The notes under the pieces: model-generated | Told to the model about the DNA's origin: nothing | Seen by the model: the letters and a program-made list of their open reading frames with translations, nothing else | Databases searched by the model: none | From: a virus | DNA length: 64,000 nucleotides | Virus record (IMG/VR): IMGVR_UViG_3300029574_000202 | Direction: 5' to 3' (one strand) | Position numbers and translations under genes: made by a program | In this document: in pieces, positions 1,343 to 31,043 of the stretch | Layout: the number at the start of each line of letters is the position of its first letter | How positions within the stretch are numbered: position 1 is the stretch's first letter

Positions 1343-2736
1343 GCACAGATACAAAAAATGCCTCACTAATAAATGATATTGGAGAAGAGAAGTTTGTAAT
1401 AGGCTGCTTGCTTATGGATCAGACTGCATACACAATTGCGAGTCAGCATTTGACTGACGACTGTTTTTACGACAGCACATGTAAGAGCATCTGGAAGGCC
1501 ATAGACATGATGGGCAAAAATGGCATCCCAATAGACCTAATTACGGTTTCAGCCGAATTGGCGAAGAAAAAAGAGCGGATTTCGGCGATAGACCTTGTAA
1601 ACATCATGTCTATGGTTGCATCTACCGCAGGGATGGAATATCATATTATACGCCTCGTTGATTTAAGCAGGAGACGCAAGATGTGGCTGATAGGACAAAA
1701 ACTATCAAACGTTGGGCTTTCAGAAGAAATACCCACAGCAGATGCACATCAGCAAGCAATAGATGGCATAAACGGTGTTTTTGAGCAAGCGGAAGGTGTC
1801 TTTACGCTTGAAGATTCCATGAAGTGTTTGAATAGCATTATCAGCTTAAACATGAAGCATGGCGGTGTTACTACTGGCACTAAGACAGGATTTGCACCAT
1901 TTGATGCAAAGGGTGGACTGCAAAAATCGGATTTGATAATCATAGCCGGCGAGACTTCAATGGGAAAGAGTTCACTCGCGTTGACAATAACAAGACATGC
2001 GATAGAGACAAACGAAAAGGTCGCGTTCTATTCCATGGAGATGACCAAGGAACAATTGGCAGCTCGAATGATTTCGGCAAAAACAAACATACCTGCAAAT
2101 ACAATACTTTACTCAGGAAATATGTCTTCAGAAGAAATAAAGATGATAGACGAAGCACGGGGCGCACTTCCTGGAAAGAACCTTTTCTTCGACGATAAGA
2201 GCACATCAAACATAGACTCCATTTTATTATCAATAAGAATGATGAAAATGAAATCTGACATAGGCGGAGCTGTAGTTGACTATCTTCAAATACTCAACGT
2301 AAATTCTAAAAACACAAGCTTTAGTCGAGAACAAGCGATGGGTGACGCTGCACGTAGGTTCAAAAACCTAGCAAAAGAACTCGGTATTTGGATAATAGCA
2401 CTAAGTCAATTATCACGCGATAGTAACAATCCTGAGCCGAACCTAAACCGCCTTAGAGACAGTGGACAGATAGGAGAAGCAGCAGATATAGTGATGCTCA
2501 TATACCGACCAGAATATTACAATCGAAGTTATCCTGCCCCATATGACAATCGTGAAGAATATCCAATTGAAGGAACAGCAATGATAGATGTAGCGAAAGG
2601 AAGAAACATTGGAACATTCAAATTCTTTCTTGGCTTTGACAAAAAGACAACCAATTTCTACATATCCGATTCTTTCTCAAATACGCCGCATCTAACAGAC
2701 GCAAACGAGCCAATTGAAGAAGACGCACCATTCTGA
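1339..2736 (+). CDS. DnaB-family replicative DNA helicase
   Basis: N-terminal DnaB-like domain. RecA-fold motifs: Walker A IIAGETSMGKSSLALTI, Walker B GGAVVDYLQIL, IIALSQLSRD, and arginine finger region RDSGQIGEAADIVMLIYR. Length 465 aa. Confidence 0.85.
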   Translation: MSTDTKNASLINDIGEEKFVIGCLLMDQTAYTIASQHLTDDCFYDSTCKSIWKAIDMMGKNGIPIDLITVSAELAKKKERISAIDLVNIMSMVASTAGMEYHIIRLVDLSRRRKMWLIGQKLSNVGLSEEIPTADAHQQAIDGINGVFEQAEGVFTLEDSMKCLNSIISLNMKHGGVTTGTKTGFAPFDAKGGLQKSDLIIIAGETSMGKSSLALTITRHAIETNEKVAFYSMEMTKEQLAARMISAKTNIPANTILYSGNMSSEEIKMIDEARGALPGKNLFFDDKSTSNIDSILLSIRMMKMKSDIGGAVVDYLQILNVNSKNTSFSREQAMGDAARRFKNLAKELGIWIIALSQLSRDSNNPEPNLNRLRDSGQIGEAADIVMLIYRPEYYNRSYPAPYDNREEYPIEGTAMIDVAKGRNIGTFKFFLGFDKKTTNFYISDSFSNTPHLTDANEPIEEDAPF

Positions 2737-5585: not shown

Positions 5586-6026
5586 ATGGTAAAAGGGACT
5601 GAAACGTTCAAGAAAGTAATAAAAGGCTATCTTGATAATAGGGCAGCCAATGACGATTTGTTTGCTGCACGTTATAACAATAAGGATAAGTCAATTGACG
5701 AATGTTGCGATTATATAATCGAGCAGGTAAAGAAAACAGGATGCAATGGATTTGTCGATGAAGAAATATTTGGCATGGCAATTCACTATTATGACGAAGA
5801 CGGTATAAAACCGCAATGTAGCCATTCTGCATGCTCTGTTATAGTAAACCTTTCTGACCACACGAAAGAACAACTCGAACAAAAAGCGAAAGAAGAATTT
5901 CAAGACAGATATCTCGCCAAGCTTGAGGCAGAGGATAAAGCTAAAAAAGAATCAGCGAGGCGCAAGGCTCAAGAAAAGAAACAAAAAGAAGAGGCGGCTG
6001 GTCAGCTTAGCCTGTTTGATATCTAA
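5586..6026 (+). CDS. PcfK-like small protein; the C-terminus QLSLFDI matches the beta sliding-clamp binding motif QL[SD]LF
   Basis: 146 aa with a Lys/Glu-rich coiled C-terminal half ending ...AAGQLSLFDI. The size and the adjacency to a roughly 416-aa partner are as seen in PcfK/PcfJ pairs of Bacteroidales mobile elements. The family assignment is from memory. Confidence 0.45.
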   Translation: MVKGTETFKKVIKGYLDNRAANDDLFAARYNNKDKSIDECCDYIIEQVKKTGCNGFVDEEIFGMAIHYYDEDGIKPQCSHSACSVIVNLSDHTKEQLEQKAKEEFQDRYLAKLEAEDKAKKESARRKAQEKKQKEEAAGQLSLFDI

Positions 6027-6037
6027 ATCTAAAAAAA

Positions 6038-7288
6038 ATGAAGCCACGAAACAAATTAGAAAGGGAGGTAGTGGAACTATCTGCTAAGCTCCCAATTATA
6101 TCCCAACATCAAGAAAAATGGGCAAAAGAACGCCTTATTAGAATAGAAGAGGCTTATAATCGTTCATCACGTATAACAGTCAGTTCTTTTCTTGTTATAA
6201 CAACATACAAAGGGTGGCAAGTAATAAGGTATTACATGATGTACACAAAGGTTGCCTATCATAAGGCTATAAAAACTTGGTTCGTAGAGTGTTTTCAACA
6301 TTGGCTAAAAGACGGGAAATACGTTTTTCTTTCGAAACCGAGAGCAATGGGATATATAAACGATGCTTTTATACCATTTGCAGAAATGACAATAAAGCGT
6401 GATTATTGCTCTTACCTTGGTGATCCTCGTGATGTTTGTGGGTGGTCTGTAGTTTACTATGCAAGACTTCAACCCAAATACAAATATATATTGCAAAATA
6501 GAAAGGACATTGACGTTGATGTATTATTACGCACCGTTAATGCAAGCCCATATAACGAAACACTTCTTCGCAAATATCCTAAAGTATGGGTAGAAAGCAG
6601 GACTAAGGGCTTTATATATGACACCGAAAAAACTGCGGCAATCAAGATAGCAATACGACACAAGTATAGGACAACGCCAGAATGGTACGATATGATAGAT
6701 AACCTCGCATATCTTAAAAAAGACTTACATAATCCAGCATTTGTGTGCCCGGCAAACTTACATGAAGCTCATGACAAATGGATGGCAGCAGCTCAAAAAA
6801 AGAGAGAACGCATGTCAGACAAAATGACAAAGTTAAGACAAATAGCAGAAGAAAAGGCAGAGCTTCGACGTTTAGAAGAGGCGGAGAAATATAATGAGAA
6901 GCTACGCAATGAAGCCAAATCTCTATCGGCACTATATATTAAAAAACGGGAACGCTACTTCGACATAGATATTACAGATGGTATTATACACATCCAAGTT
7001 CTAAAGTCAGTGGATGAATTTTTCGAAGAAGGCAAAGAAATGTGTCACTGTGTTTTTTCAAATAGATATTATGATATAAATAGAAAGCCGAATTGCCTTA
7101 TATTATCAGCCAGGATAAATGGCAAACGAACAGAGACGATAGAGGTGGATTTATACTCTAATTTAGTAATTCAATGCCGCGGAAAGCACAATATGGATAG
7201 CAAATACCACAAACAGATTATGAACTTAATCAACTCTAATATGTGGCAGATAAAACTATTACATGAACACCATGCAAATGCTGTATAA
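6038..7288 (+). CDS. PcfJ-like protein (416 aa)
   Basis: Size and position immediately downstream of the PcfK-like gene; the family call is recollection only. Confidence 0.4.
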   Translation: MKPRNKLEREVVELSAKLPIISQHQEKWAKERLIRIEEAYNRSSRITVSSFLVITTYKGWQVIRYYMMYTKVAYHKAIKTWFVECFQHWLKDGKYVFLSKPRAMGYINDAFIPFAEMTIKRDYCSYLGDPRDVCGWSVVYYARLQPKYKYILQNRKDIDVDVLLRTVNASPYNETLLRKYPKVWVESRTKGFIYDTEKTAAIKIAIRHKYRTTPEWYDMIDNLAYLKKDLHNPAFVCPANLHEAHDKWMAAAQKKRERMSDKMTKLRQIAEEKAELRRLEEAEKYNEKLRNEAKSLSALYIKKRERYFDIDITDGIIHIQVLKSVDEFFEEGKEMCHCVFSNRYYDINRKPNCLILSARINGKRTETIEVDLYSNLVIQCRGKHNMDSKYHKQIMNLINSNMWQIKLLHEHHANAV

Positions 7289-7314
7289 AAATGGCGTTTT
7301 TGATTAAAACAACC

Positions 7315-7420
7315 CTTGATATATTTGCATATATGCAAATATATTAGTACCTTTGTATATAGAAAGTTGGAAGTTAGATTTGATTGTCCAAATCATCCGA
7401 ATAAGTTAAACCAATTAAAT
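7315..7420 (+). promoter_or_regulatory. Diverged copy D of the promoter-leader cassette. It has atatTTTGcatatatgcaaatatattagTAccTTTGtatatag, a different leader hairpin (GATTTGA...TCAAATC) and gttaaaccaattaaattcag.
   Basis: The promoter core and the downstream taaaccaattaaa are conserved. The leader hairpin sequence is replaced but a hairpin is retained. Confidence 0.5.
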
Positions 7421-7549
7421 TCAGTGTAATATAAATACAAAATAAAAAGTCCAGACATCCACAAAGCGGAGACAAATAATGTTAAATTATTGTTAAATAT
7501 TAATATATATCACAACATATATCAAAATAATCACTATTTTTGCAATCAA

Positions 7550-8395
7550 ATGACATACGACTACGACAAATTAAGAGAGTACGTTAAACGATGTAATTGG
7601 TGTTGGGCTCAGTCTATGATAGAAGTGCCGCATGAATACATTCATCGTGACAAGTGCGCATTGACTCGCGAAGAGTTCTATTATTTCGTTAGCGCCCAGC
7701 GTGAAAACGGAATACACGAACGATGGGGTAAATACAATTTCCCATATCTTTACCTGGACGGATACAAGTATTGGACAATGGGAGACCCATTTGAAACCAC
7801 TTGGATTTTAAATCGCCAGAAGGTTTTCAACGAATTTGACTTTCTCGACTGGCCGATTCCAAGACTTCATACAAACCAAGAAATGGACATGATGGCGAAA
7901 ACCATTTTGTATTCATTTAAAGAAAAGAAGGTTTTTGAGGCTGGAATAGGAAATGGCGATTTCGTGAAGTTGTCTAAAATCCGACCGGAAATGTATTATG
8001 GGGTTGACCCTAGCAAAAAGTCAATATTGCAGTTCCGTGCGAACGCATTCGGATTTTATAGAAGGTGCTCTACAAAGTCATTCGAAGAGTCAATCAACAA
8101 ATGGCTTTCAGCAGACAGCGTCGTAATTTCCCTATTTGGAACAGCATCGTATTTCATGCATCAGTATCTAGAGAAACTTGGTAAGAGTGGGATTGATTAC
8201 TGTTTGATGTTTTATCGAGAGGACTTCGAACCTGAAGAGTTCAAAGATATGCATCACTTTAAGTACGACCGGGTACAATTGAAGTCAATGTTCCCAGGCT
8301 GCAATCTCTACAACCACCAAAAATACATAACAATATCAAACAAAAAGTTAGTTTGGCAGCAACCGACAATAGAAAATGAATTATTCCCAGTATGA
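7550..8395 (+). CDS. Class I SAM-dependent methyltransferase-like protein with a Cys-rich N-terminal extension
   Basis: Motif I KVFEAGIGNGDF and motif II YYGVDPS. The ORF track starts at 7490, but the Asn/Ile-rich first 20 codons are doubtful, so the start is placed at 7550 (MTYDYDK). Confidence 0.45.
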   Translation: MTYDYDKLREYVKRCNWCWAQSMIEVPHEYIHRDKCALTREEFYYFVSAQRENGIHERWGKYNFPYLYLDGYKYWTMGDPFETTWILNRQKVFNEFDFLDWPIPRLHTNQEMDMMAKTILYSFKEKKVFEAGIGNGDFVKLSKIRPEMYYGVDPSKKSILQFRANAFGFYRRCSTKSFEESINKWLSADSVVISLFGTASYFMHQYLEKLGKSGIDYCLMFYREDFEPEEFKDMHHFKYDRVQLKSMFPGCNLYNHQKYITISNKKLVWQQPTIENELFPV

Positions 8396-8918
8396 TGACA
8401 TAGCAGTCAATTATGACAACCTCTTTCGTGATGAAAGTAGTTTAGTCGAGAACCGTGAGGTGGGAGCGATGCTTCCACCTCTCAAAGGTTCTGTCTTAGA
8501 TATCGGTTGTGGAACAGGATTGCTAACGGAGGTATACGACATATCTCCACAGGATTATTTGGGCATCGATCCTAGTATTGGAATGTTAACACAGTTCCGC
8601 AAGAAACATCCAGAGTTTGCAGAACGTCTTGTAAACGAACCGTTCACTGGCAAAAACATAGATTGTAAAAAGTTTGATAATATTGTCGCTATGTTCGGTT
8701 CTCCGTCATACTTGTCAGGTTACGCCATAGTAGCTATATCTAAGAGCAATGCCCGTAAGTTTCTTATGTTCTACAAGGAGGGTTATCATCCTGTCACATA
8801 TGAAAAATGCGATGTCGAGTTTTCACATAATGTGTATTCAAAGAAATCCCTTATTCATTTGTTTGGAGAAAATAACGTATCAGAATATCACAACTATATA
8901 ATTGTAAATAGCCAATGA
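8376..8918 (+). CDS. Class I SAM-dependent methyltransferase
   Basis: Motif I VLDIGCGTGLLTE and an acidic residue in LGIDPS; length 180 aa. Confidence 0.65.
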   Translation: MNYSQYDDIAVNYDNLFRDESSLVENREVGAMLPPLKGSVLDIGCGTGLLTEVYDISPQDYLGIDPSIGMLTQFRKKHPEFAERLVNEPFTGKNIDCKKFDNIVAMFGSPSYLSGYAIVAISKSNARKFLMFYKEGYHPVTYEKCDVEFSHNVYSKKSLIHLFGENNVSEYHNYIIVNSQ

Positions 8919-9571
8919 AACAGAAAGGGTTGCGTTATGATGGAAGTATTGATAAATACCCCATAACAGAAGGAGAAGTCTATTGTTTGGACAATGGAAG
9001 TAAAATCACCATTGCTGATATTACATTAGAGCTTCCTGAGTTTTCGGAAAAGGCAGATTGTGTGTTTATTGACCCTGCTGGAAACAAGGGTGTTCTAAAG
9101 GCTTACTATACAAAAGCGGAAAAAGAATGCCCAGTCCAAAGCTTTGACGAGTTTGTTACACACATTAAAAAATGTATCGAACAAATAAAACCAGACAGGC
9201 TTTTTGTAGAGTGCTTTGCTCGTAATAAGACTCAAATTATCAAAATGGTCGAGTCTTTATTCCCATGTGTTAAAATTTACAACAACACATATTACCACAG
9301 TCCTAAAAATGCTTGTTGGATAGTACAAGGAACAAAACAGCCAGAGGATTGGAAACTTGAAGGAATGGATGAATGGGAAGCCGTTTTCAAAATATGTGAA
9401 GATGTTCCTTTCAAAGCCATAACAGATTTCTTCTTGGGACAAGGGCTCGTCGCTGAGGCAGCTTTTAATGCCGGTAAGGTATTTTATGGAAGCGACATGA
9501 ATCGCAATAGACTTGCCGTTGCTATAAACCGCATAGCAAAACGAGGAGGAGATTGGACAATAAACAAATAA
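8915..9571 (+). CDS. Beta-class (N6A/N4C-type) DNA methyltransferase-like protein with an atypical catalytic motif DPAG instead of DPPY
   Basis: The order is motif IV first (ADCVFIDPAGNKG), then motif I (DFFLGQGLVAEAAFNAGKVFYGSDMN, compare DPFxGSGTT...GiE.N). Only 218 aa. Confidence 0.5.
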   Translation: MKQKGLRYDGSIDKYPITEGEVYCLDNGSKITIADITLELPEFSEKADCVFIDPAGNKGVLKAYYTKAEKECPVQSFDEFVTHIKKCIEQIKPDRLFVECFARNKTQIIKMVESLFPCVKIYNNTYYHSPKNACWIVQGTKQPEDWKLEGMDEWEAVFKICEDVPFKAITDFFLGQGLVAEAAFNAGKVFYGSDMNRNRLAVAINRIAKRGGDWTINK

Positions 9572-9578
9572 AAATCCT

Positions 9579-10313
9579 ATGATAAAGCTATCACAAATTA
9601 TTATCCTTAACGTTCCCAAAAGAGAACGTGAGGGCAAGTATCTAAAAAAACTTATAGAGACAAGTGCTAAGCCTTTTGGTATAGAGGTAAGTATTTCCAT
9701 GGATAGAGGTTTAGGATTGTGGGATAATTACTCAAGAGCGCTAACGCAGGATGTAGCCGAGGGAACACACAGAATGATTATCCATGATGATATATCTTTT
9801 GACAGAAACATCCTCGAGAAAATACTTTACATCCTTTCTCATGCCCCTGAGCACAACATTATCAGTTTTTACAATCCAACCAATGGAGATTATATGGACT
9901 GCTTTAATAAAGGCAAGCATGTAATCTCAACAAAGACAAACTTTTGGCTACAGGCAAGTGTTTACCCAAACGACTTGGCGAAGGATTTCGTAGAGACATC
10001 TAATAAAATGACTGATGACCAAACCAGATATGACGACTCACGACTTAAAGCATATTTGCAGGCGAAAGGAACGTGTCTGTATGCTATCGTTCCCGGTTTG
10101 GTTCAGCATTTTGGTGCATACAGAAGCACTTTTGGGAATCCAGGTTCCGTCGGAGGGATACAGCGCTATAGCAACACATATAACAACCAGTTAGATGTAA
10201 AGACTATCAATTGGGAAGAGGAATTTAAAACTCCATATCTCGCAAAATCAAGCAAAGATTGGGTCAAAGAAATAGTAAATAAGGAATTTTTCGATGAATA
10301 CAAGAAACTCTAA
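9579..10313 (+). CDS. hypothetical protein (244 aa); a possible transferase within the modification island
   Basis: ORF, ATG-initiated, embedded between the MTase-like and ParB-like genes. No clear motif was recognised. Confidence 0.4.
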   Translation: MIKLSQIIILNVPKREREGKYLKKLIETSAKPFGIEVSISMDRGLGLWDNYSRALTQDVAEGTHRMIIHDDISFDRNILEKILYILSHAPEHNIISFYNPTNGDYMDCFNKGKHVISTKTNFWLQASVYPNDLAKDFVETSNKMTDDQTRYDDSRLKAYLQAKGTCLYAIVPGLVQHFGAYRSTFGNPGSVGGIQRYSNTYNNQLDVKTINWEEEFKTPYLAKSSKDWVKEIVNKEFFDEYKKL

Positions 10314-10749
10314 AGAAAACCTTGCTTTAAAATTGGCGAAAGACAATATAGAGGTAGAACAGGTGAAACCACTGCATATTGACTACATTAAAGTTGATGA
10401 CATTTATCCAAATGACTACAACCCCAACACTCATGATGCAGATAGCTTTGACTTGCTCGTAAAGTCCTTGCTTTATTTTGGCTTTACCCAACCTATCGTT
10501 GTTAATCGCTCTACAATGCAGATTGTGGATGGAGAAAACCGCTACAGAGCCGCTTGCGTAATTGGATATGAAATGGTTCCAGTTTGTTTTGTTGACTTCG
10601 ATGAAGAAAAACTTAAATATGCGACTATTATGCACAATGCCGCACGTGGACATAATAATAACGAAATGATGACTAAGTTAAAAAATTACTTGGATACCCA
10701 TTTCGACAACTCCAGTGACAAAGTACTCTTAAATAACAGGAAGAAATGA
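10294..10749 (+). CDS. ParB/sulfiredoxin-fold (ParB-like nuclease domain) protein #1
   Basis: Core VDGENRYRAA corresponds to the ParB N-terminal domain motif DGxHR..A. Length 151 aa. Confidence 0.55.
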   Translation: MNTRNSKENLALKLAKDNIEVEQVKPLHIDYIKVDDIYPNDYNPNTHDADSFDLLVKSLLYFGFTQPIVVNRSTMQIVDGENRYRAACVIGYEMVPVCFVDFDEEKLKYATIMHNAARGHNNNEMMTKLKNYLDTHFDNSSDKVLLNNRKK

Positions 10750-11939
10750 TATTTTATAGTGACAAGAATGTTTACGAAGCGGCTCTTGAGAGATTTAGAT
10801 ACATCTTTAAAGAGTTTTATGGCAAACGCAAGATTGTTGTAACAATGTCTGGCGGTAAGGATTCGACTGTAGTCCTAAATCTCGCCCATGAGGTTATGCA
10901 AGAAATGGGAATAGAGAAAATACCGGTTCTTTTCTTAGACCAAGAGGCTGAAACACCAATGACAATTGAATACGTACGATACATCATGCATCTTCCGTGG
11001 GTTGAGCCGTATTGGATTCAGTCGTATTTCCAAGAATGGAACGCCTCAAAGGGAGAGTGGTTCAACGTATGGGGGCCAGGAGAAAAGTGGATTCGCGAAA
11101 AAGAGCCGGATTCTTATGGTGACTTGGAGATACCGCACAACCAGTATTTCTCCAAGACCCTTGATCAGGTGCACAGAATGTTATTTGGAAAAGACTACCT
11201 TACTTTGGGTGGTGTACGAATTGAGGAGTCGCCTGCAAGATTGTCGGGTCTTACAAGGGGAGAGTGCCTTCCAGGCATCACATGGGGAGGAGGCGGTGGA
11301 TATTACAAAGACGGAACCCCAAGAAGTCTTGTTCTCTACCCTATTTGGGATTGGAAGGTATATGATGTGTGGTATTACATCTTCAGCAATAAGCTTCCGT
11401 ACTGCAAACTCTACAATTATCAATTCACACAAAAACCGTTACGAGCGTGTAGAGTTAGCTCGTTAATCCACGAGCAAGCTATACACGACCTTGGATTTAT
11501 TAAGGAGGTAGATCCGTGGTTTTATGATAAACTTGTCAGACGAGTTGCCAATGTCAATACATCTGTACACGCTTTTAACGATGTGGCGAATTATTGTTAC
11601 AACCTACCTCCTTATTTCAAGGATTGGGACGAATACGTTGACTACCTTGCCGATAACCTTTGTGAAGACAAGAAGAATGCGGAAACTATTAAAAGGGGAT
11701 ATCGCTCAGCAAAAAAACGCAACACAGCGAAAGCTGGACATTGTCAAGAGTGCGTTGATTACGTAATACATCAGATAGGCTTCACAAGCGCAGTTTGTGT
11801 TATTGCTGAGGATTTTGGCATGAAGAGAATACAGAGCGTTGAGCGCTCACTACGGCAGTATTTGAGTGACAATTATGTTAAAATAGAAAAAGCTAATAAA
11901 GAATATGAATCTTCAAGAAAACATAAAGAAGGAGTTTGA
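10746..11939 (+). CDS. PAPS-reductase-family PP-loop ATP pyrophosphatase, IbrA/DndC-like, with a C-terminal extension
   Basis: PP-loop VTMSGGKDSTVVL. A block LYPIWDWKVYDVWYYIFSNKLPYCKLYNYQ matches the CysH-family PLxDW..DVW.YI....PYN.LY region. At 397 aa it has an extra C-terminal region of about 150 aa, as in IbrA/DUF3440 proteins. Confidence 0.8.
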   Translation: MIFYSDKNVYEAALERFRYIFKEFYGKRKIVVTMSGGKDSTVVLNLAHEVMQEMGIEKIPVLFLDQEAETPMTIEYVRYIMHLPWVEPYWIQSYFQEWNASKGEWFNVWGPGEKWIREKEPDSYGDLEIPHNQYFSKTLDQVHRMLFGKDYLTLGGVRIEESPARLSGLTRGECLPGITWGGGGGYYKDGTPRSLVLYPIWDWKVYDVWYYIFSNKLPYCKLYNYQFTQKPLRACRVSSLIHEQAIHDLGFIKEVDPWFYDKLVRRVANVNTSVHAFNDVANYCYNLPPYFKDWDEYVDYLADNLCEDKKNAETIKRGYRSAKKRNTAKAGHCQECVDYVIHQIGFTSAVCVIAEDFGMKRIQSVERSLRQYLSDNYVKIEKANKEYESSRKHKEGV

Positions 11940-12564
11940 CGCAGCGAAAGACAAGCTGCAGTTCTTAAACGACCTTAGAAAATACATAAGCTCTTTGTCT
12001 CCAGAGAAAGTAAACCCGGTTGACTGTGTACTTTGGGTAGACAAAGACATGGTGGTTGCCAATAACTATAACCCAAACCATGTTGCCGACAAAGAAATGC
12101 GACTTCTTTATACATCGGTAAGAGAGGACGGATACACTATGCCTATCGTCACCATTTGGGATGAGAAACTACAGAAGTACGTAATCATTGACGGATTCCA
12201 CAGAAATCTCGTTATCCGCAAATTTGCTGACATAAACGAGCGTTGTGGCGGAAGATTGCCTATCGTAGTGCTCGACAAGGACATTGACCAGCGAATGGCA
12301 TCTACCGTCCGCCATAACAGAGCGCGAGGAAGTCATTCTGTCGACGGTATGGTGAACATTGTTTTCAATATGCTTCGTGACGGAAAGTCAGAGCGTGAGA
12401 TTTGTGAGCAGGTAGGACTTGAACAAAAGGAGCTCGTAAAGCTAAAATACGTGACAGGTTTTGCCAAAATATTTAAAAACTACAAGTACAACGCCGCAAT
12501 TGAAAAAGTCGTAGATGAGAGGCGTGTGGCAAGAGAAACAGCAAAGAAAGGAGAAACAGAATGA
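11905..12564 (+). CDS. ParB-like nuclease domain protein #2
   Basis: VIIDGFHRNLVIRKF (DGxHR motif). The N-terminal region resembles a ParB N-domain. Length 219 aa. Confidence 0.65.
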   Translation: MNLQENIKKEFDAAKDKLQFLNDLRKYISSLSPEKVNPVDCVLWVDKDMVVANNYNPNHVADKEMRLLYTSVREDGYTMPIVTIWDEKLQKYVIIDGFHRNLVIRKFADINERCGGRLPIVVLDKDIDQRMASTVRHNRARGSHSVDGMVNIVFNMLRDGKSEREICEQVGLEQKELVKLKYVTGFAKIFKNYKYNAAIEKVVDERRVARETAKKGETE

Positions 12565-13187
12565 AAGTAAAATCAGTTAAGCTAAGCGAGATTTACCCTT
12601 ATTACGATAATCCTCGCGACAACACAAATGCCGTAGAGCCTACAAAGGAGAGCATTAGGCGATTCGGTTTTGTAAAGCCGATTTTGGTAGATAAAGCAGG
12701 AGTTATCATTGCCGGTCACACACGTTACGTCGCAGCTTATCAATTAGGCATGGAGTACGTTCCTGTTGTATATTCCAGCATGGATGATGAGATGGCGAAG
12801 AAGTATCGCATCCTTGATAATAAACTTGCCGAAAAGTCATCATTTGACGAAGACCAGCTCTTGGAAGAGTTGCGAAATATGGAAGTGCCAACAGAAATGC
12901 AGGTCTTCTTCTTCGAGGATATAGACCAAATGCTTAATTTCTCCTTTGATTCAATTAGTCAGCAAGCAGAGGAATACGGTGGCTTCCAAGATGATTATTC
13001 ATCAGTTGATAACGAAAATTTAGAAGCCACATCATCTGAAACAGAAACTACATCTACCGACGAAGAGGAGGAAGACCCCGCAAAAGACCTATTCGTACTA
13101 AAAGAACGCGAAGATGGAAGCCACTACATGAAGGTTGTTTGTCCATTCTGCGGCAATATGGAAACCATTGAAATAGAGGAGGTATAA
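12561..13187 (+). CDS. ParB-like nuclease domain protein #3 with an acidic linker and a single C-terminal CxxC
   Basis: IIAGHTRYVAAYQLG (GxxRxxA); acidic tract SSETETTSTDEEEEDP; C-terminal VVCPFCGN. Confidence 0.65.
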   Translation: MKVKSVKLSEIYPYYDNPRDNTNAVEPTKESIRRFGFVKPILVDKAGVIIAGHTRYVAAYQLGMEYVPVVYSSMDDEMAKKYRILDNKLAEKSSFDEDQLLEELRNMEVPTEMQVFFFEDIDQMLNFSFDSISQQAEEYGGFQDDYSSVDNENLEATSSETETTSTDEEEEDPAKDLFVLKEREDGSHYMKVVCPFCGNMETIEIEEV

Positions 13188-13188
13188 T

Positions 13189-13806
13189 ATGTCAGACATA
13201 AGAATCAACGATACTATCATAGAACTGCCAATTGAAAGCATCATACCGCATGATGGTTCGCACAAAACAGACGAAAATGCAGTTAGTGCTCTTATTCAGT
13301 CGATAAAAGACTTCGGTATTACGCAGCCCATCTCGATTGATAAAAACAACGTTATTGTAACTGGCAATGGAGTATACAAAGCGGCTAAGGCTTTGGGAAT
13401 TGACAAAATTCCGTGCATACGTGTAGGCTATCTCACAGACGAGCAGATACAGCAGTATCGTATTGCAGACGACAAAACATCAGAGTTCGCAACATGGAAC
13501 GAGAAAAAGCTCCGTAAAGAATTATCTTATTTAGGCGATCCGAACAGCTTACAGTATGCGTTCGACGAAAGCATAACTAACATGCTCGGTCTTAATGCCA
13601 AGCCTAAGGCCCCAAAAACAGTCACCGTTCCAACAAAGGAAGAAACAAATCATTCTGTTAAAAAAGTAATTACCGAGGAGCAAAAGGATCAGAAGTTCAA
13701 AGAGGAGTTGAAGGGTGTGGAAGAGACCATTCAAGTTAAGCCCTCAGAATACTACGAATATCATTGCTCGAATTGCGGCAAACTTGTAAAAGTAAAGAAG
13801 CCATGA
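13189..13806 (+). CDS. ParB-like nuclease domain protein #4 with a single C-terminal CxxC
   Basis: VIVTGNGVYKAAKALG in a ParB-like N-domain context (IESIIPHD...); C-terminal YHCSNCGK. Confidence 0.55.
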   Translation: MSDIRINDTIIELPIESIIPHDGSHKTDENAVSALIQSIKDFGITQPISIDKNNVIVTGNGVYKAAKALGIDKIPCIRVGYLTDEQIQQYRIADDKTSEFATWNEKKLRKELSYLGDPNSLQYAFDESITNMLGLNAKPKAPKTVTVPTKEETNHSVKKVITEEQKDQKFKEELKGVEETIQVKPSEYYEYHCSNCGKLVKVKKP

Positions 13807-14339
13807 CACAAGAAACATCACAGCAGAAGACAAAATCGTTCGTGCATAGGATTCCAAACCCAGTTGGCAGACCTTTTAAAATAAAGTCTGCCTCCGAACT
13901 TTGGGAAAAGTTTGTGGCTTACTGTGATGATGTTGAAAACAACCCCTGGCAAGTAAAGACCGGCAGTAACTCTATTGCTGGAGACAATGGTAGGCAAAGC
14001 AATACTATGCGACAAGAAGTACGTGTTATGCAAAGAGCATACACTCTTTATGGGTTTTGTGCTTTTTGTGGCATAGTCCAAAAATGGGCTGACTTCAAGC
14101 GTGGTAACATGAAACGTAAAGGTTTTGAGCCTGTTATTATGCAGATTGAGAATGTCGTTGCATCACAACAGCTTGATGGTGCGCTAATTCATCAATTTGA
14201 CAGTAACATTGTTGCCCGGCTGAATGGTCTTGCCGACAAGCACATCCAGGAAGTCACTGGTAAAGATGGTGAAGAATTCAAATTCCCGAAATTATCTATT
14301 GACGATATTAACGAACTGAAAGATATAAATGGATTTTGA
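13803..14339 (+). CDS. Terminase small subunit (putative)
   Basis: Sits immediately upstream of TerL with an ATGA overlap to the previous gene (start at MTQETSQQ). N-terminal basic, HTH-like region PNPVGRPFKIKSASELWEKFVAYCDD. Length about 178 aa. Confidence 0.5.
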   Translation: MTQETSQQKTKSFVHRIPNPVGRPFKIKSASELWEKFVAYCDDVENNPWQVKTGSNSIAGDNGRQSNTMRQEVRVMQRAYTLYGFCAFCGIVQKWADFKRGNMKRKGFEPVIMQIENVVASQQLDGALIHQFDSNIVARLNGLADKHIQEVTGKDGEEFKFPKLSIDDINELKDINGF

Positions 14340-15804
14340 AAAGCAACGGTTTCTCCATAGGCAGCTATTAGCGTCTTCGCTATTGCAGTTTACTACTAAG
14401 ATGTTCGCCTACACGGCTCGCAGAGAGTACGTCGTAGGCGAACATCATAAGATTATATGCGATGCGTTAATGGACGTTATAAAGGGCAGGACGAATAAAC
14501 TCATTATAAACATATCGCCACGTTACGGAAAAACGTTACTTTGTTCCCAAATGTTTATCGCCTATGGACTAGCACTAAACCCGGCATCAAAATTTTTGCA
14601 CATTTCTTATTCAGGAAGCTTGGTTCAAGAAAATTCCATGGCGGTGAAAGACACAATAACTTCAACATATTTTCAGGCACTTTTCCCAGAAGTACAAATA
14701 AGGAAGAACGATAACACACGTGCTAAATGGAGCACTACAGCAGGAGGGGGCGAGTATGCCACATCTACCCTTGGACAGATTACCGGTTTTGGTGCTGGTC
14801 AAGCAGAAATGACAGAGGAGGAGCTAAAGAACATAGATGACTTTACTGCACAGTTCAATCCAGACCATTTTGCAGGCGCAATAGTTATAGATGACCCATT
14901 GCGCCCAGATGATGCTCTTTCTGATAATGTAAGAGAGTCTATCAACAGACGATTTGAGACTACCATAAGAAACCGTGTAAACTCACGTAAGACACCAATT
15001 ATCATAATTATGCAGCGATTGCATGAGCATGACCTATGCGGATATTTGCAAGAAATTGAGCCAAACGAATGGACTGTTGTATCATTACCTGTTATTAAAC
15101 GTGACGAAGACGGCACAGAGCACGCATTATGGCCTTTCAAACATACACTTGAAGAGTTGTATAAAATCAAGCACGCCAGCGAGTTTGTGTTTGAAACCCA
15201 ATATATGCAGAACCCAACCCCAATGGAGGGACTCATGTATCATGTCTTTAGAACGTATGATGCACTGCCAGAAAGGAGAAAGGCACGTATGCTTGGAAAT
15301 TATACAGACTCTGCAGACACTGGTTTCGATTTTCTGTGCTCTATATGTTTCGATGCGCATGATGATGGATATTATGTAACAGACGTATTGTACACCAAAC
15401 GTCCAATGGAGTTTACAGAGCCTGCACAAGCTAATATGCTTAAACGAAATAAGACAGACATTTGTTTTGTGGAAAGCAATAATGGAGGTCGTTCATTCGC
15501 CCGAAACGTCGAACGCCTTACAAAAGAGTACGGTAATCGAAAAACAATATTCGTAACATTTACTCAGTCTAAGAACAAACAGATACGAATATTCACACGT
15601 TCGAGTGAAGTAAATAACCGACTCGTCTTCCCCTCTAACTGGGAACAGCTATGGCCAGAGTTTGCACATGACTTAAAAGCATATCGCAAGGAGGGATATA
15701 ACGCTCATGATGATGCTCCTGACGCAGCGACAGGAATTATAGAGAAATGCGAAGAATGGCTAAACAACATCTCGGACGAACAGATTATGAGAGACTTTTT
15801 GTAA
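14329..15804 (+). CDS. Terminase large subunit
   Basis: Walker A ISPRYGKT, Walker B AIVIDDP and IIIMQRLHEHDL. RNase-H-like nuclease domain with DSADTGFDF and HDDAPDA. Length 491 aa. Confidence 0.9.
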   Translation: MDFEKQRFLHRQLLASSLLQFTTKMFAYTARREYVVGEHHKIICDALMDVIKGRTNKLIINISPRYGKTLLCSQMFIAYGLALNPASKFLHISYSGSLVQENSMAVKDTITSTYFQALFPEVQIRKNDNTRAKWSTTAGGGEYATSTLGQITGFGAGQAEMTEEELKNIDDFTAQFNPDHFAGAIVIDDPLRPDDALSDNVRESINRRFETTIRNRVNSRKTPIIIIMQRLHEHDLCGYLQEIEPNEWTVVSLPVIKRDEDGTEHALWPFKHTLEELYKIKHASEFVFETQYMQNPTPMEGLMYHVFRTYDALPERRKARMLGNYTDSADTGFDFLCSICFDAHDDGYYVTDVLYTKRPMEFTEPAQANMLKRNKTDICFVESNNGGRSFARNVERLTKEYGNRKTIFVTFTQSKNKQIRIFTRSSEVNNRLVFPSNWEQLWPEFAHDLKAYRKEGYNAHDDAPDAATGIIEKCEEWLNNISDEQIMRDFL

Positions 15805-15924: not shown

Positions 15925-16055
15925 TTTAGTATTTTTAACTAAAATATCTATTAGTATATTTGCATATATACGAATATGTTAGTACCTTTGTATATAGTTA
16001 AGAAACAGGTAGAATTGACTAACAGGTCGCTACCTAACAAGTTAAACCAATTAAA
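15925..16055 (+). promoter_or_regulatory. Repeated promoter-leader cassette, copy B (near-identical to A and C)
   Basis: Identical to copy A apart from 2-3 substitutions. Followed by ttaaattcagaagag and then the ATG at 16066. Confidence 0.6.
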
Positions 16056-16065
16056 TTCAGAAGAG

Positions 16066-16889: not shown

Positions 16890-17339
16890 ATGGGATGTTT
16901 CAGTTGGTTTACGATGGATACACACCATCGAATTGTGAACTGTGATTTGTACACCGTATACCTCGTAGATGACAAGGGCAATAAATGGAAGGAAAATTGC
17001 TACGAAGGATATGGAGTATTCGGAGGCAAGGATTTTTATGAATTGTTAGCCGAAATGAATGGTTATGAGTTCAAAGATTATGGAGATGGCGAAGGGTATG
17101 TTATTCATGGTGGCAAGAAATACGTATCAAACAACGTGTGGGAAGACGCAAGACTCATAGGAATAGAATTGGCTTTCGGAGAAGAACCAGGTGGAAAATG
17201 TAAATACCCATATGGTAATAATCCAACTTTGAATTGGCCAGCTATAACAGAGAGCGGCGAATATATTAAAGGAATACCAGAAATGGATCCTGAACAAGGG
17301 TTTATAAAAGACGATAACGAAGAGGAGGACTGGACATGA
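16890..17339 (+). CDS. hypothetical protein (149 aa)
   Basis: ORF, overlapping the ligase start by 4 nt. Confidence 0.45.
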   Translation: MGCFSWFTMDTHHRIVNCDLYTVYLVDDKGNKWKENCYEGYGVFGGKDFYELLAEMNGYEFKDYGDGEGYVIHGGKKYVSNNVWEDARLIGIELAFGEEPGGKCKYPYGNNPTLNWPAITESGEYIKGIPEMDPEQGFIKDDNEEEDWT

Positions 17340-18133
17340 AGCCAATGCTCGCTACAAAATACAATAAAGCACAGGTTAAATTCCCGTGCTTTGTTCAACC
17401 AAAGTACGACGGAGTACGTTGTCTTCTATATGAAGATGGTGATGGATTTATACACTTAGAGTCAAGGGGCGGTAAGGAATACAATGTTCCACAAATCAAA
17501 GATTGGGCAGAGCATCACAGAAGATACCTGCCATTGGATGGTGAGATATACAGCCATAAAGAACTCACATTTCAGCAAATTTGTTCTGCAGTAAAATGCA
17601 AAACTGAGCTAACGGACAAGCTCAAAATGGTTGTATACGACAAACCAGTAAAAGAGCAAGGGTTCGAAACGCGCTTTGTAAACCTGCAATGTGAGATACC
17701 AGCAGATAAAACCATTTGGCCAGTGTATCGCTCTAATACATACATGTGTCACTCCGAAGAACAAATAAAAGAGTTACACGATAAGTTTGTAAGGCAAGGA
17801 TATGAGGGAGCTATAATACGCAATATAGGACACGGGTATGTAGAAGGACTAAGCAATGACCTGATGAAATTAAAAGTGTTTGACACAACGGAGTTTGAAG
17901 TTGTTGATGTATTGGAAGCAGGAGGCAACGATTCTGGTACGGCTATATTTGTGCTAAAAGCGGAAAACTCCAACTTCTGTGCACGTCCTACTGGTTCCAG
18001 GGAACTTCGTGCTAAGTACCTCAATGAGAGAAACAAGTTAATAGGAAAGAAGGCTACCATACAGCATCAAGGATATACCGATGCGATGGTTCCTCGTTTC
18101 CCAGTAATGATAAATATTAGAGACTATGAATGA
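17336..18133 (+). CDS. ATP-dependent DNA ligase (compact, about 265 aa)
   Basis: Motif I KYDGVR (KxDG), motif IV EGAIIR and motif V LMKLKVF. The size is typical of minimal phage or Chlorella-virus-type ligases. Confidence 0.8.
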   Translation: MKPMLATKYNKAQVKFPCFVQPKYDGVRCLLYEDGDGFIHLESRGGKEYNVPQIKDWAEHHRRYLPLDGEIYSHKELTFQQICSAVKCKTELTDKLKMVVYDKPVKEQGFETRFVNLQCEIPADKTIWPVYRSNTYMCHSEEQIKELHDKFVRQGYEGAIIRNIGHGYVEGLSNDLMKLKVFDTTEFEVVDVLEAGGNDSGTAIFVLKAENSNFCARPTGSRELRAKYLNERNKLIGKKATIQHQGYTDAMVPRFPVMINIRDYE

Positions 18134-19700: not shown

Positions 19701-21281
19701 TTAGAAGTTATATTCTTTTATTTCCAGAATACCATCACGTAGTATAGCGCATAAAACGTTTCTCAAAGGAGTATTAGAGTTATTGCTTTTTAGTACTCCC
19801 AACATTCGCTTGTATCCATCTATAAGCTTCTCTTCTTCAAACATAGAAGGCTCGTGGAAATATAAGCAAACATCATGATATTCGGCTGCGACATCTTCTC
19901 TTAAGTTGAATTTCTTTAATTGCCGACTCTTGTTTAGCAGTTGGTTTCTATAATCCACGGTGTTACTAGTAATAGATGCCAAGTCCATCAAGCGGCCGTC
20001 TAAAACCATGTCAAGAGCAGCCATCTCTTTCCCCGTTTTGTCTTTCTTACCTTCTTCGCAAAATATAACACTATGTCCATCAGAAAATGCCTTTTCTAAA
20101 AATTCATTTTCTAAATCGTCACCATCCATCGTTCCGTTAAAAAAGTCTTTTGCAGTATAGTTGTGCTTGTTATGACTTATGTGAACAGCTTTGACGCCAC
20201 CTGCGGAATTTATTTCAACATCCTTATAGTTTGTATCATTCTTGAGTTTCTGATACTCGTTTCTTTTTCGAACGACCAAACGCACTTCCTTATCTGCAAT
20301 AAAATTAGCGTTATCAGCAAGAAAGTAAGGTAAACTTTTATTAGATTTTATCTTATCAGCGTTGTTCGATATCCACTTGTTAAAACTGCTTGGGACATCG
20401 GTGTATAATTTCTTCGGGCCTTCGCCCCAATACTCTTCTTCAGTCATTATAACGGGTACAGCGTAGCACATGCAGTTAACGTGCCAACCACTCCAAGGGA
20501 AGCCATTGGGGTATTTTCCGGCAAGTTCATCGCACATATCCTCTTTAGGGTGGCTCCCACTTGTTCTGATTTCAATGCCCTTGACAAAATCAAAGCGACG
20601 CCAACGTTCCTGCTCTGCAGTGCGATAAGCCATGTTTATCTCGTTGCGAGCGAGTCTAACACTACGATATTCGCACCCTGAAACATCTATCGCTTTACCA
20701 TATTTCTTCTTGTAATCTTTAGCAAGCGAAGGATAATCATTTAGATATTTACTAACACGTTTACTAAGCTTAACAGCGCTCATACCCTTCTCTATCCCCG
20801 TGGCCAATGCTCGCTCCAATGACTTCTTAACATCCTCCCTTTGATTCCAAATACGTTGAGACAGATTCATTCCTTTTATTGTTCGATTCTTGAACGCTTC
20901 TTTTGCGGCATTATTCTTCTCGTAGTATGCCTTAACTCGCTTTTGCCCTATACGCCTTGAGTAAGACTTAATGACTCTGCGCACAAGCAAGTCTTGGAGA
21001 GTGTTGCTACTTTCCCATTCGTTAGATATTCCACTGTAAACAAGTGTTTGCATATTACTTGAATAGTAATTGAGCAGAGATTTCACTCTACGTTCGGTCT
21101 TGGGATAATTAGAAAAAGAAAACTCATCGCTGCCGTCATAACCTACATCAACAGCAAGTTTTGCAGCCTCTTTTGCGAGCATTGCATATATAGCCAACAC
21201 CTTTCTAGTGTATTGGTTCAGTCTTTTGGACAGGTCTTTGTACGCTTTCTTTTGATTTGGTGTGCTTATTTTTGCCATCAC
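19701..21281 (-). CDS. Phage head morphogenesis protein, Mu gpF / SPP1 gp7 family
   Basis: RLARNEINMAYRTAEQERW...GIEIRTSGSHPKEDMCDELAGKYP...WHVNCMCY is the canonical Phage_Mu_F C-terminal domain ending in H.NC.C. Length 526 aa. Confidence 0.85.
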   Translation of the reverse strand: MMAKISTPNQKKAYKDLSKRLNQYTRKVLAIYAMLAKEAAKLAVDVGYDGSDEFSFSNYPKTERRVKSLLNYYSSNMQTLVYSGISNEWESSNTLQDLLVRRVIKSYSRRIGQKRVKAYYEKNNAAKEAFKNRTIKGMNLSQRIWNQREDVKKSLERALATGIEKGMSAVKLSKRVSKYLNDYPSLAKDYKKKYGKAIDVSGCEYRSVRLARNEINMAYRTAEQERWRRFDFVKGIEIRTSGSHPKEDMCDELAGKYPNGFPWSGWHVNCMCYAVPVIMTEEEYWGEGPKKLYTDVPSSFNKWISNNADKIKSNKSLPYFLADNANFIADKEVRLVVRKRNEYQKLKNDTNYKDVEINSAGGVKAVHISHNKHNYTAKDFFNGTMDGDDLENEFLEKAFSDGHSVIFCEEGKKDKTGKEMAALDMVLDGRLMDLASITSNTVDYRNQLLNKSRQLKKFNLREDVAAEYHDVCLYFHEPSMFEEEKLIDGYKRMLGVLKSNNSNTPLRNVLCAILRDGILEIKEYNF

Positions 21282-21447
21282 AGCTTATGTTTGAAATATT
21301 CGCAGCAATCATGATTTAACAACATACTATGCCTTTGGAAATCACATTTGCAAAGTATTGGTTCATTAAGAAGGCTCATGCTGTGAAATTCACGAGCATG
21401 AGCACAATCCTTACAGAAATATTTTATTTTTACACTTCTATTCTTTG

Positions 21448-22910: not shown

Positions 22911-23043
22911 TTTAGTATTTTTAACTAAAATATCTATTAGTATATTTGCATATATACGAATATATTAGTACCTTTGCATATAGTTAAGAAGCAGGTAGAA
23001 TTGACTAACAGGTCGCTACCTAACAAGTTAAACCAATTAAAAC
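22911..23043 (+). promoter_or_regulatory. Repeated promoter-leader cassette, copy C
   Basis: Near-identical to copies A and B. Followed by aacattaaagattATG, the same start context as copy A. Confidence 0.6.
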
Positions 23044-31024: not shown

Positions 31025-31043
31025 CAATATAACAAACATAACT

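Follow-up and report, generated by a model that had tools for sequence, protein, structure and literature searches.

The 64,000-nucleotide viral record IMGVR_UViG_3300029574_000202 (hereafter the window, to whose full length all positions refer) carries between 7550 and 13806 an island of nine genes, numbered g01 to g09 in order, in which an IbrA-like PP-loop protein with ParB-fold partners is surrounded by three methyltransferase (MTase)-fold genes and a glycosyltransferase (GT). We read this island as a post-replicative, DNA-directed modification cassette, in which an ATP-adenylylating core is combined with lineage-specific tailoring enzymes and which would protect the packaged DNA from host defences; we give this account nearly, yet not quite, an even chance of being right. 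The constant core consists of IbrA, IbrB and one or two accessory ParBs, with exchangeable methyl-, glycosyl- and acyltransferases around it. Several features point to DNA as the substrate, namely the DNA-MTase fold of g03 and a DPPW counterpart of it, the affinity of the ParB proteins to ParB-DNA-MTase fusions, the association of the N-terminal domain of g01 with nucleases and GmrSD, and the neighbourhood of DNA-metabolism and packaging genes. The gene content, folds, motifs and operon structure described below, as well as the conservation and the co-occurrence across phyla, were observed directly.

A first-pass annotation of the sequence had drawn nine consecutive, co-oriented genes between the early region and the terminase genes, and this picture held: all nine open reading frames (ORFs) are present on the plus strand (Table 1), with a DnaC-like loader and the DnaB helicase upstream and TerS and TerL downstream. 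Neighbouring island genes overlap (8376/8395, 8915/8918, 10294/10313, 10746/10749, 11905/11939, 12561/12564) or lie at most about 8 nt apart, which suggests translational coupling. At the head of the operon stands a perfect palindrome, ATATTTGCATATATGCAAATAT, and after it comes TTAGTACCTTTGTATATAG with a -7 box of the TAnnTTTG type; the whole element of about 130 bp is a direct repeat of 15932-16060 (83-93% identity). The palindromic operator (ATATTTGCATATATRCRAATAT) with the TAnnTTTG-type box occurs in four plus-strand copies (2793-2834, 7321-7362, 15956-15997 and 22942-22983; 0 expected by chance), and a weaker fifth copy of the operator lies at 61088-61134. Judged from the Bacteroidota consensus, the repeated element would be a promoter; the operator copies split the phage genome into operons, probably all under a single regulator. 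After the island head the next promoter copy is found only past terL, and since the repeated element thus brackets 7.3-15.9 kb, we take the island, terS and terL as one transcription unit. In comparison with a diverged relative, third-position identity was 0.36-0.55 against 0.78-0.99 at positions 1 and 2 in all nine ORFs (per-position identities were used because saturated synonymous sites left NG86 dS not computable), and the retention of positions 1 and 2 despite this saturation marks the ORFs as real, constrained genes. A DNA-level search with 7400-14400 against 50,697 annotated phages gave no match, and PADLOC returned weak or partial matches on the island and no defence-system assignment. 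For g01, g03 and g04 no match was obtained in Pfam, PHROGs or NCBIfam, and these genes were identified via paralogy and structure prediction.

We consider g06 the core enzyme of the cassette. It matched PF01507 (1.4e-16; 61 bits, cut-off 22.5), PF11922 (1.7e-5; 25.1 bits, cut-off 25) and phrog_2302 (1.5e-67), in agreement with its first description as a PP-loop protein with a DUF3440-like extension. In an alignment of nine diverse IbrA-family proteins SGGKDS, D65, E67, R117, R158, E161, R165, D202, W203 and R236 are invariant, and no cysteine is. The PAPS/APS reductases of the CysH type have a conserved catalytic cysteine in a C-terminal ECGLH-type motif. Because it has no invariant cysteine, g06 is neither a CysH-type thiol enzyme nor a DndC-type Fe-S/persulfide enzyme, and CysH metabolism was rejected as its role for want of the catalytic residue. 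Its scores also stayed below the CysH family thresholds (TIGR00434 cysH, 18.4 bits against 165; PRK02090, 27.9 against 154), and the match to DndC (TIGR03183, 2.7e-8) spans residues 29-81 only, with 33 bits against a cut-off of 290, while BrxP gave 3e-11. When compared with PDB sequences, the g06 profile matched FAD synthase/FMNAT (1.2e-10) and CysD (3.9e-7) over local motifs, followed by true PAPS reductases (about 5e-6). As far as the sequence goes, g06 is consistent with an ATP-dependent adenylyl-transfer enzyme. A second PAPS-reductase-family PP-loop gene of the window (28356-29192; PF01507 1.6e-19, phrog_424) differs from g06 in that its SGGKDS is accompanied by the cysteine motifs FCCQ and GCMGCP and in that no ParB gene adjoins it; on either side lies a small ORF (27970-28359 and 29194-29640), and these two are paralogues with the C-terminal motif Y(I/V)HELQH(L/I)L..LGL in common.

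The four ParB-fold proteins g05, g07, g08 and g09 (ParB1 to ParB4) form four distinct conserved classes in a class alignment and are not recent duplicates. They had been described as four tandem paralogues; the fold assignment stands, and the arrangement is not strictly tandem, with one gene upstream and three downstream of the PP-loop gene. The IbrB-like g07, which overlaps the stop of g06, matched the ParB-like family phrog_2159 (6.9e-63), is 53% identical (5e-60) to gp1 of Microbacterium phage Hendrix, annotated as ParB-like, and aligns with the annotated IbrB of Streptococcus phage CHPC1230. Its class adjoins IbrA in the Streptococcus, Mycobacterium, Arthrobacter, Flavobacterium, Bacillus and Microbacterium phages examined, and no sequence relative of it was found among solved structures. 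Both g08 and g09 matched ParB_N (4.7e-9 and 2e-7) and phrog_620 (3.7e-42 and 6.6e-37), and orthologues of g08, all with a C-terminal CxxC, are Hendrix gp2 (44%, 4e-27), L089:14271-14894 and L088:819-1379. The arginine of the active-site motif, in partition ParBs the nucleotide-binding residue of GxxR, is present in g05 (DGENR), g07 (DGFHR) and g08 (AGHTR) and missing in g09 (TGNGV), as it is in the g09 orthologue L089:14907-15563 (AGNAIY) and, with AGNHT, in Pipefish gp1 and Kovu gp5; g09 may be a non-catalytic partner. Each protein of the ParB3 and ParB4 classes, from Bacteroidota phages to actinophages (Hendrix gp2/gp3, L180:803-2007), ends, past a linker that is acidic or rich in S/T/P, in one CxxC knuckle, and by analogy with the Rad50 hook it might be speculated that the two half-sites share one zinc and so pair the paralogues.

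In the island ParB proteins (151-219 aa) only ParB_N was found, with no helix-turn-helix (HTH) or C-terminal dimerisation domain, and they scored 30-46 bits against the partition ParB model TIGR00180, whose cut-off is 58. Among the scanned window ORFs there was no match to the ParA, CbiA or AAA_31 families, and in 5-16.5 kb no parS-like repeat array was seen beyond the promoter copies. A partition role was rejected on these three grounds, the lack of a ParA, an HTH domain and a parS array. Together with the intact PP-loop lacking a catalytic cysteine and a strong co-occurrence in other phages, this speaks against ordinary partition ParBs and a metabolic CysH, the finding by which the first-pass annotation would have been refuted.

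The 244-aa product of g04, initially left without an assignment, proved to be a GT-A glycosyltransferase: an invariant DxD-type pair D70-D71 (HDD or QDD) stands right after strand E64-69 of the model, and among viral structures the protein is matched best by GT25-type enzymes and actinophage GTs. The g04 profile retrieved from PDB sequences only ATP synthase alpha subunits, which were rejected as chance matches. The following gene g05, which we regard as the partner of g04, matched ParB_N (5.4e-13); in PHROGs and PADLOC it scored best against the ParB module of proteins in which ParB is fused to a DNA MTase (phrog_498, 3e-24; PDLC03229, 1.8e-13).

For g03 both the beta-class DNA-MTase fold and the DPAG motif of the first-pass annotation were upheld. 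The protein has a permuted Rossmann fold with motif IV before motif I, an FxGxG S-adenosylmethionine (SAM) motif and an intact motif I (DFFLGQG), and the nearest structures are DNA N6A/N4C MTases. Its motif IV is non-canonical, DPAG being found in 17 of 18 family members and GPAG in one; the canonical catalytic (D/N/S)PP(Y/F/W) is absent and PF01555 gave no match. The counterpart in L088 is a canonical DPPW enzyme that matches PF01555, and some close relatives carry an added g03 paralogue with EPAW; an extra g03 paralogue is present in L059.

The other two MTases were correctly placed in class I. The g02 protein matched Methyltransf_25 (4.8e-7) as well as Methyltransf_12/23/11, gave only weak CpaM/UbiE/BioC/CmoB-like matches in NCBIfam, and matched phrog_4752, a 'tRNA methyltransferase' family. 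L206 and L239 lack the gene or carry it truncated, L088 and L089 do not have it at all, and we regard it as a dispensable tailoring gene. Residues 106-265 of g01 are paralogous to g02 (BLASTP 1e-14), and PF13649 was found in several g01 homologs. In front of this part lies a domain of about 90-100 aa (7550-7864) with the motif W..PHEY..YKYWTMG..NR, which no Pfam model matched and which is represented by 1018 representative clusters. It occurs free-standing at L088:1379-1654 and fused to PDDEXK_4 nucleases (five cases), class I MTases and GmrSD_N (also L096:7186-9795 and L097), and divergent g01 homologs adjoin GmrSD_N genes in defence islands or sit on a mobilisable plasmid. This company of PD-(D/E)XK nucleases, GmrSD_N, defence islands and a mobilisable plasmid points to a DNA-directed role of g01, whose N-terminal domain may be an undescribed domain recognising DNA or modified DNA. 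The likely orthologue of g01 is Hendrix gp156; searches of the annotated phage set by tblastn with g01 and with g04 gave no match, and the Hendrix cassette was reached only via structure and profile comparisons.

The window stems from a temperate Segatella (Prevotella) copri phage; its g06 protein is 97% identical to a protein of S. copri strain N016-9, and near-identical copies are present in more than 100 IMG/VR gut contigs. The protein clusters of g01, g03 and g04 comprise 1,300-1,800 member sequences each. In about 80 IbrA-anchored loci, as well as in 69 of 72 anchored on TerL, all nine genes are kept in collinear order; what the three exceptions lack is g02, the g04-g05 pair or both, so that no island gene other than g02, g04 and g05 is ever lost. 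Despite saturated synonymous sites, IbrA and IbrB are 97% identical at the protein level to those of L005 (pN 0.02), against 89% for TerL and 75-81% for the MTases in the same comparison; the IbrA/IbrB core is thus more strongly constrained than the packaging motor. Relatives add a MetK-like SAM synthetase, a g03 paralogue or three more GT-A genes. The MetK-like gene, inserted between the second and third MTase genes of the island in L064 (7359-8147) and L062, is truncated to 262 aa and matches only the N-terminal domain PF00438 (3.9e-9). MTases, GTs, GNATs and MetK are in this manner gained and lost around the IbrA/IbrB core. Loci with more distant relatives of g04 have a like gene set: in L088 the order is CxxC ParB, free g01 N-terminal domain, NNMT-like MTase, GT-A, ParB1, DPPW MTase, IbrA and IbrB, with terminase and portal further on, and in L089 a g01-like gene is followed by four GT-A paralogues, ParB1, IbrA, IbrB, ParB3, ParB4, TerS, TerL and portal. 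Mosaic recombination within the island is visible between L059 and the window: the stretch from g07 to terS is 98-100% identical and has nearly the same codons, while g04 and g05 share only 80-83% identity and their third positions are saturated, and the breakpoints lie between cassette modules.

Beyond this lineage, IbrA homologs were found in 223 annotated phage records, with hosts including Flavobacterium, Mycobacterium, Streptococcus, Arthrobacter and Bacillus, and IMG/VR gave more than 330 among the matches listed. In diverse IMG/VR loci with a called IbrA, a ParB lies within two genes of it in 61 of 75, immediately downstream in 46 and on both sides in 34. Several ParBs are therefore the norm, ParB-IbrA-ParB being the common layout, and the multiplication of ParB genes that had been singled out as special is not so. 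The nearest non-ParB neighbours of IbrA are DNA-metabolism genes, and GNAT acetyltransferases are found in 6 of 25 loci. Examples are Pipefish (gp1 ParB, gp4 IbrA, gp5 IbrB, gp6 TerL), Kovu (gp5 ParB, gp6 IbrA, gp7 IbrB, gp8 acetyltransferase, gp9 TerS, gp10 TerL) and Bacillus phage 031MP003 (gp81 ParB, gp82 IbrA, gp83 MTase, then gp86 of the IbrB class).

The closest parallel is offered by Hendrix, a cultured, lytic, circularly permuted actinophage with 66% GC, whose genome paper is silent on the cassette. Across its genome ends it encodes GT-A enzymes (gp154/155), a g01-like MTase (gp156), an N-acyltransferase (gp157), IbrA (gp158), IbrB (gp1), two CxxC ParBs (gp2 and gp3), gp4, TerL (gp5) and later a DNA ligase (gp10). 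Like the window, Hendrix thus combines a GT-A, a class I MTase with the N-terminal domain, IbrA, IbrB and two CxxC ParBs, followed by the terminase; unlike in the window, an N-acyltransferase and a second GT replace g02, g03 and ParB1, identities are 25-53%, and the cassette is known from annotation alone. Besides the two ParB pairs given above, gp158 is 36% identical to g06 (2e-47) and gp154 25% to g04 (1e-9), compared with 24% (2e-19) for gp5 and the window TerL. Because it is conserved far better than the backbones of the phages that carry it, we consider the cassette an ancient, horizontally mobile unit. The first-pass annotation had called the combination unmatched; no characterised system matches it indeed, but it is not unique to this phage, since Hendrix, L088 and L089 carry the same set, and the island is best described as an enlarged variant of a known, uncharacterised module.

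This module is the IbrA/IbrB (YbdN/YbdM) pair, with which the island shares the PAPS_reduct and DUF3440 domains adjoining an IbrB-class ParB with DGFHR and RHNRARG; in contrast to the plain pair, the island adds two further CxxC ParBs, the GT-A/ParB pair and three MTase-fold genes and is co-transcribed with the terminase. Membership in a family without known biochemistry says little on function. With DndC, SspD and BrxP and their partners DndB and SspE, which act on DNA, the island has in common a PP-loop ATP pyrophosphatase of the PAPS-reductase clan and a partner of the ParB/Srx superfamily, whereas its IbrA has no conserved cysteine or Fe-S ligands and matches those proteins in the PP-loop region only, far below the cut-offs. 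No cysteine desulfurase, DndD/E or SspB/C was found in the island (Pfam, PADLOC) or the other scanned window ORFs, and no TGT/DpdA, QueC, QueD or QueE in the nine genes or the other 58 window ORFs scanned. Phosphorothioation was thus rejected for lack of the cysteine and the desulfurase, and a Dpd 7-deazaguanine system for lack of a tRNA-guanine transglycosylase (TGT), which disfavours chemistry of either kind. DndB-class ParBs and PAPS-reductase-type enzymes are treated in recent papers on the comparative genomics of Dnd and BREX, in which the IbrA/IbrB module is not discussed.

A further likeness is to the ParB-DNA-MTase fusions that phages and plasmids encode (phrog_498; PADLOC MTase_II PDLC03229), whose ParB module is the best match of g05, g08 and g09 and whose C-terminal half has the fold of g03; the island differs in that the genes are separate, in having DPAG instead of DPPY/W, and in its connection to a PP-loop enzyme and a glycosyltransferase. 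In GmrSD/DUF262-type defence islands a g01-family MTase likewise adjoins a ParB/Srx-superfamily gene (GmrSD_N), but these loci are cellular and defence-like and have neither IbrA nor a GT. The glucosylation of hydroxymethylcytosine in T4, the thymidine hypermodification by 5-HMUDK and aGPT-Pplase, Dpd/DpdA and Mom follow the same logic of a core activating enzyme with an exchangeable GT, MTase or acyltransferase, serving anti-restriction. None of 5-HMUDK, aGPT-Pplase, preQ0 genes or a Mom-type GNAT was present among the scanned window ORFs, and we know of no precedent for a PP-loop adenylyltransferase as the activating enzyme among base hypermodification pathways.

Table 1. Island genes and surrounding features of the window.
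Feature	Position	Strand	Assignment
DnaC-like loader and DnaB helicase	683-2736		upstream of island
PcfK-like and PcfJ-like genes	5586-7288		directly upstream of island operon
Promoter/operator and conserved leader	7297-7424	+	putative; head of island operon
g01	7550-8395	+	N-terminal domain of about 100 aa and class I SAM methyltransferase
g02	8376-8918	+	class I SAM methyltransferase, small-molecule/RNA-type family
g03	8915-9571	+	minimal (218 aa) beta-class (permuted) DNA amino-methyltransferase fold
g04	9579-10313	+	GT-A fold glycosyltransferase, 244 aa
g05 (ParB1)	10294-10749	+	short ParB_N-only protein; motifs DGENRYRAA, HNAARG
g06	10746-11939	+	IbrA-like PP-loop ATP pyrophosphatase/adenylyltransferase, PAPS_reduct and DUF3440
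g07 (ParB2)	11905-12564	+	IbrB-like ParB/Srx-fold protein; motifs DGFHR, RHNRARGSH
g08 (ParB3)	12561-13187	+	ParB_N; AGHTRY motif, acidic S/T-rich linker, C-terminal CPFC knuckle
g09 (ParB4)	13189-13806	+	ParB_N paralogue; TGNGVY, C-terminal CSNC knuckle
terS	13764-14339	+	phrog_606, 1.1e-20
terL	14329-15804	+	phrog_38, 1.6e-89
LuxS gene	37626-38099		S-ribosylhomocysteine lyase
Radical-SAM gene	35175-36185		CxxxCxxC, distantly RlmN/Cfr-like
Integrase	62744-64000

In the region of L089 equivalent to the PcfK/PcfJ-like pair (L089:5522-7542) the polyvalent-protein domains LPD29 and LPD11 were found. Such proteins are typical of conjugative elements and anti-defence cargo. At the other end of the island the ORFs of g09 and terS overlap, as do those of terS and terL, and downstream of terL follow an ATP-dependent DNA ligase, portal, head-morphogenesis and capsid genes, tail genes and the integrase. 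The ligase lies a few genes past terL in both the window (17336-18133) and Hendrix (gp10, L180:5429-6466), and as the two have no BLASTP similarity at E 0.1 or better, the common position is maybe a coincidence or convergent placement. In about ten relatives (L014, L022, L044, L081, L249-L254) the TerL match starts at residue 69 and is shifted by about 1.15 kb, which suggests an insertion in the 5' part of terL, for example an intron, an intein or a homing-endonuclease gene. The portal and head-morphogenesis genes (Bxa ADP-ribosyltransferase-like/minor head) at 19701-22908 are on the minus strand in a mostly plus-strand genome, and together with a local GC-skew reversal (-0.17) this suggests an inverted segment. 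Among the scanned ORFs is a Tad2-like domain (Thoeris anti-defence 2, PF11195, 1e-17), which we would guess from its GWNGKG...DWELV motifs to be encoded at 30996-31775. Rfam placed a tRNA at 42807-42911 on the plus strand (47.6 bits; 105 nt against a 71-nt model), overlapping the start of the ORF 42850-43626; ARAGORN reported no tRNA in the window, including this one, which may carry an intron or insertion. Just upstream of the major capsid gene lie the LuxS gene (159.8 bits, cut-off 158) and that of the radical-SAM protein. With LuxS, the radical-SAM protein, three MTase-fold genes and the MetK of its relatives, this phage invests heavily in SAM chemistry, and the methyl-cycle helpers LuxS and MetK support the reading of the island as a modification cassette.

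The cassette could work as follows. The ParB-fold proteins would bind replicated phage DNA, probably in an NTP-dependent manner, and recruit the enzymes; IbrA would adenylylate an oxygen of the DNA, either a base carbonyl or a backbone phosphate, with release of pyrophosphate; the activated site would be resolved by a nucleophile, and the product glycosylated and methylated, or acylated in other lineages. Co-expression with terS and terL would ensure that the packaged DNA is the modified DNA, shielded from restriction and DNA-sensing defences at the next infection. DNA as the substrate, the order of the steps, their chemistry and the anti-defence role are thus what we propose. The first-pass annotation had suggested a multi-step hypermodification or anti-restriction pathway; one conserved, co-transcribed, DNA-oriented unit, no accidental neighbourhood of genes, is indeed present, while a covalent hypermodification of DNA, rather than of RNA, protein or a metabolite, is what we infer from it. 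A bolder version, in which IbrA and IbrB represent an undescribed post-replicative DNA chemistry (adenylylation of a DNA oxygen guided by a ParB-fold NTPase, then a glycosyl/methyl, elsewhere acyl, adduct) that is independent of hydroxymethyl-pyrimidines, 7-deazaguanine and sulfur and shared by hundreds of phages of at least three bacterial phyla, seems to us unlikely, if not strikingly so.

A number of points weigh against a DNA modification cassette. The modification is deduced from the genes, not from a modified nucleoside, and the g06 matches to FMNAT and CysD are not full-length. Lacking the catalytic PP(Y/F/W), g03 may be inactive, and the usual substrates of class I MTase and GT-A families are small molecules, glycans, RNA or proteins. 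Among the scanned window ORFs there is no deoxynucleoside monophosphate hydroxymethylase, TET/JBP protein or kinase that would make a classical base sugar acceptor. Terminase is among the nearest neighbours in only 1 of 25 IbrA loci, and in Streptococcus phages the module follows the lysin; after this neighbour census terminase adjacency was rejected as a universal defining feature, being frequent, not universal. Literature searches on the function of IbrA/IbrB, YbdN/YbdM, DUF3440, PAPS-reductase/ParB pairs of phages, S. copri prophages and Hendrix brought up only annotations, a survey of auxiliary metabolic genes (AMGs) and a regulon study, and no functional work on the pair or the Hendrix cassette. 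The sole reported phenotype of IbrA/IbrB, taken from the source annotation, is enhanced expression of prophage eib genes.

This phenotype leads to an account in which the module serves regulation or DNA handling: the ParBs would be NTP-dependent clamps, acting as counter-silencers (VirB-like) or packaging accessories that prepare concatemeric DNA for the terminase by organising or marking it, or that turn on late or prophage genes, IbrA an ATP-using regulator, and the MTases and GT separate anti-restriction or moron genes. Subsystem annotations indeed name IbrA/IbrB 'co-activators of prophage gene expression', E. coli ybdNM is a CitR-repressed, H-NS-linked operon according to the regulon study, the module lies just upstream of the terminase here and in Pipefish, Kovu, Hendrix, L088 and L089, and the loss of the catalytic-site arginine in g09-class ParBs is as expected of a structural role. 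However, a clamp-type HTH or dimerisation domain and a parS-like array are what the searches described above did not find, terminase adjacency is missing in many loci, a PP-loop active site kept intact under extreme constraint speaks for catalysis, and a moron model does not predict the co-variation, seen across phyla, of the module with the GT-ParB1 pair and the g01-type MTase, which renders this account rather improbable. Somewhat better placed, though still unlikely, is the synthesis of a metabolite or donor. Sulfiredoxin and the archaeal serine kinase SerK are ParB/Srx-fold kinases, and the ParB/Srx partner might be a kinase whose phosphate product IbrA adenylylates to give an ADP-linked compound that is used or tailored by GT-A, GNAT and MTase enzymes, with virion proteins (compare the glycosylated capsids of mycobacteriophages), a host surface glycan or a host immune-signalling nucleotide, thereby neutralised, as candidate acceptors. 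The nearest solved relatives of IbrA, FAD synthase and CysD, move AMP onto an oxyanion, g05 and g07 have weak SerK-like matches in NCBIfam, the GT-A and class I MTase families normally have non-DNA substrates, the GT25-type and actinophage GTs matched by g04 fit such a scheme, the S/T- or T/P-rich linkers of ParB3 and ParB4 could themselves be glycosylated, and the Tad2-like anti-signalling domain is an anti-defence investment of this phage. What donor synthesis leaves unexplained is the need for three or four ParB-fold proteins, the DNA amino-MTase fold of g03 and its L088 counterpart and the company kept by the g01 N-terminal domain, and most ParB-IbrA-ParB modules have no transferase able to use the donor.

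Two further accounts take the PP-loop enzyme to RNA or to sulfur. Many PP-loop enzymes modify tRNA, and a TilS/ThiI/MnmA-like g06 with class I MTases acting on tRNA or rRNA might reprogram translation or evade tRNA-targeting defences; this would suit the phrog_4752 and weak CmoB matches of g02 and a phage that encodes a tRNA and an RlmN/Cfr-like radical-SAM protein. With no THUMP, PUA or TilS-C domain found in the island proteins by Pfam, a g06 that the profile search of PDB sequences does not place near ThiI, TilS or MnmA, and a context of ParB proteins, a beta-class DNA MTase and a nuclease-associated domain that points to DNA, we deem RNA modification very improbable. Scarcely to be expected is a cysH-type AMG that boosts sulfate assimilation of the host, with the ParBs as partition or nuclease proteins and the MTases as orphan anti-restriction methylases. 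The AMG survey classes such phage genes as organosulfur 'cysH' AMGs and notes a DUF3440 clade, g06 does match PF01507, and LuxS in this phage and MetK in its relatives would be in line with sulfur metabolism. Yet g06 has an intact ATP-type SGGKDS loop and no invariant cysteine, its NCBIfam scores are far under the CysH and CysD cut-offs, a ParB partner accompanies it in most diverse loci, and no other sulfate-assimilation gene, ParA or cysteine desulfurase was found in the window ORFs scanned.

Pairs of a PAPS-reductase-like and a ParB-like protein are among the most often annotated and least understood phage genes and have so far been read as regulators or sulfur AMGs. Our analysis adds that such a pair forms, under strong constraint, the core of a modular, DNA-oriented cassette that recruits methyl-, glycosyl- and acyltransferases. 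The cassette is essentially fixed in the S. copri phage lineage, and this lineage is very common in human gut metagenomes. As it is not unique and an orthologous cassette is carried by the cultured model Hendrix, the cassette is less exotic yet more important. Should the bolder proposal of an undescribed chemistry be true, many phage 'cysH sulfur AMGs' would be mis-assigned. If the island modifies DNA, it would represent a new anti-restriction chemistry with a bearing on gut phage-host networks, methylome-based host assignment and the sequencing of such phages, and might be a source of new DNA-modifying enzymes.

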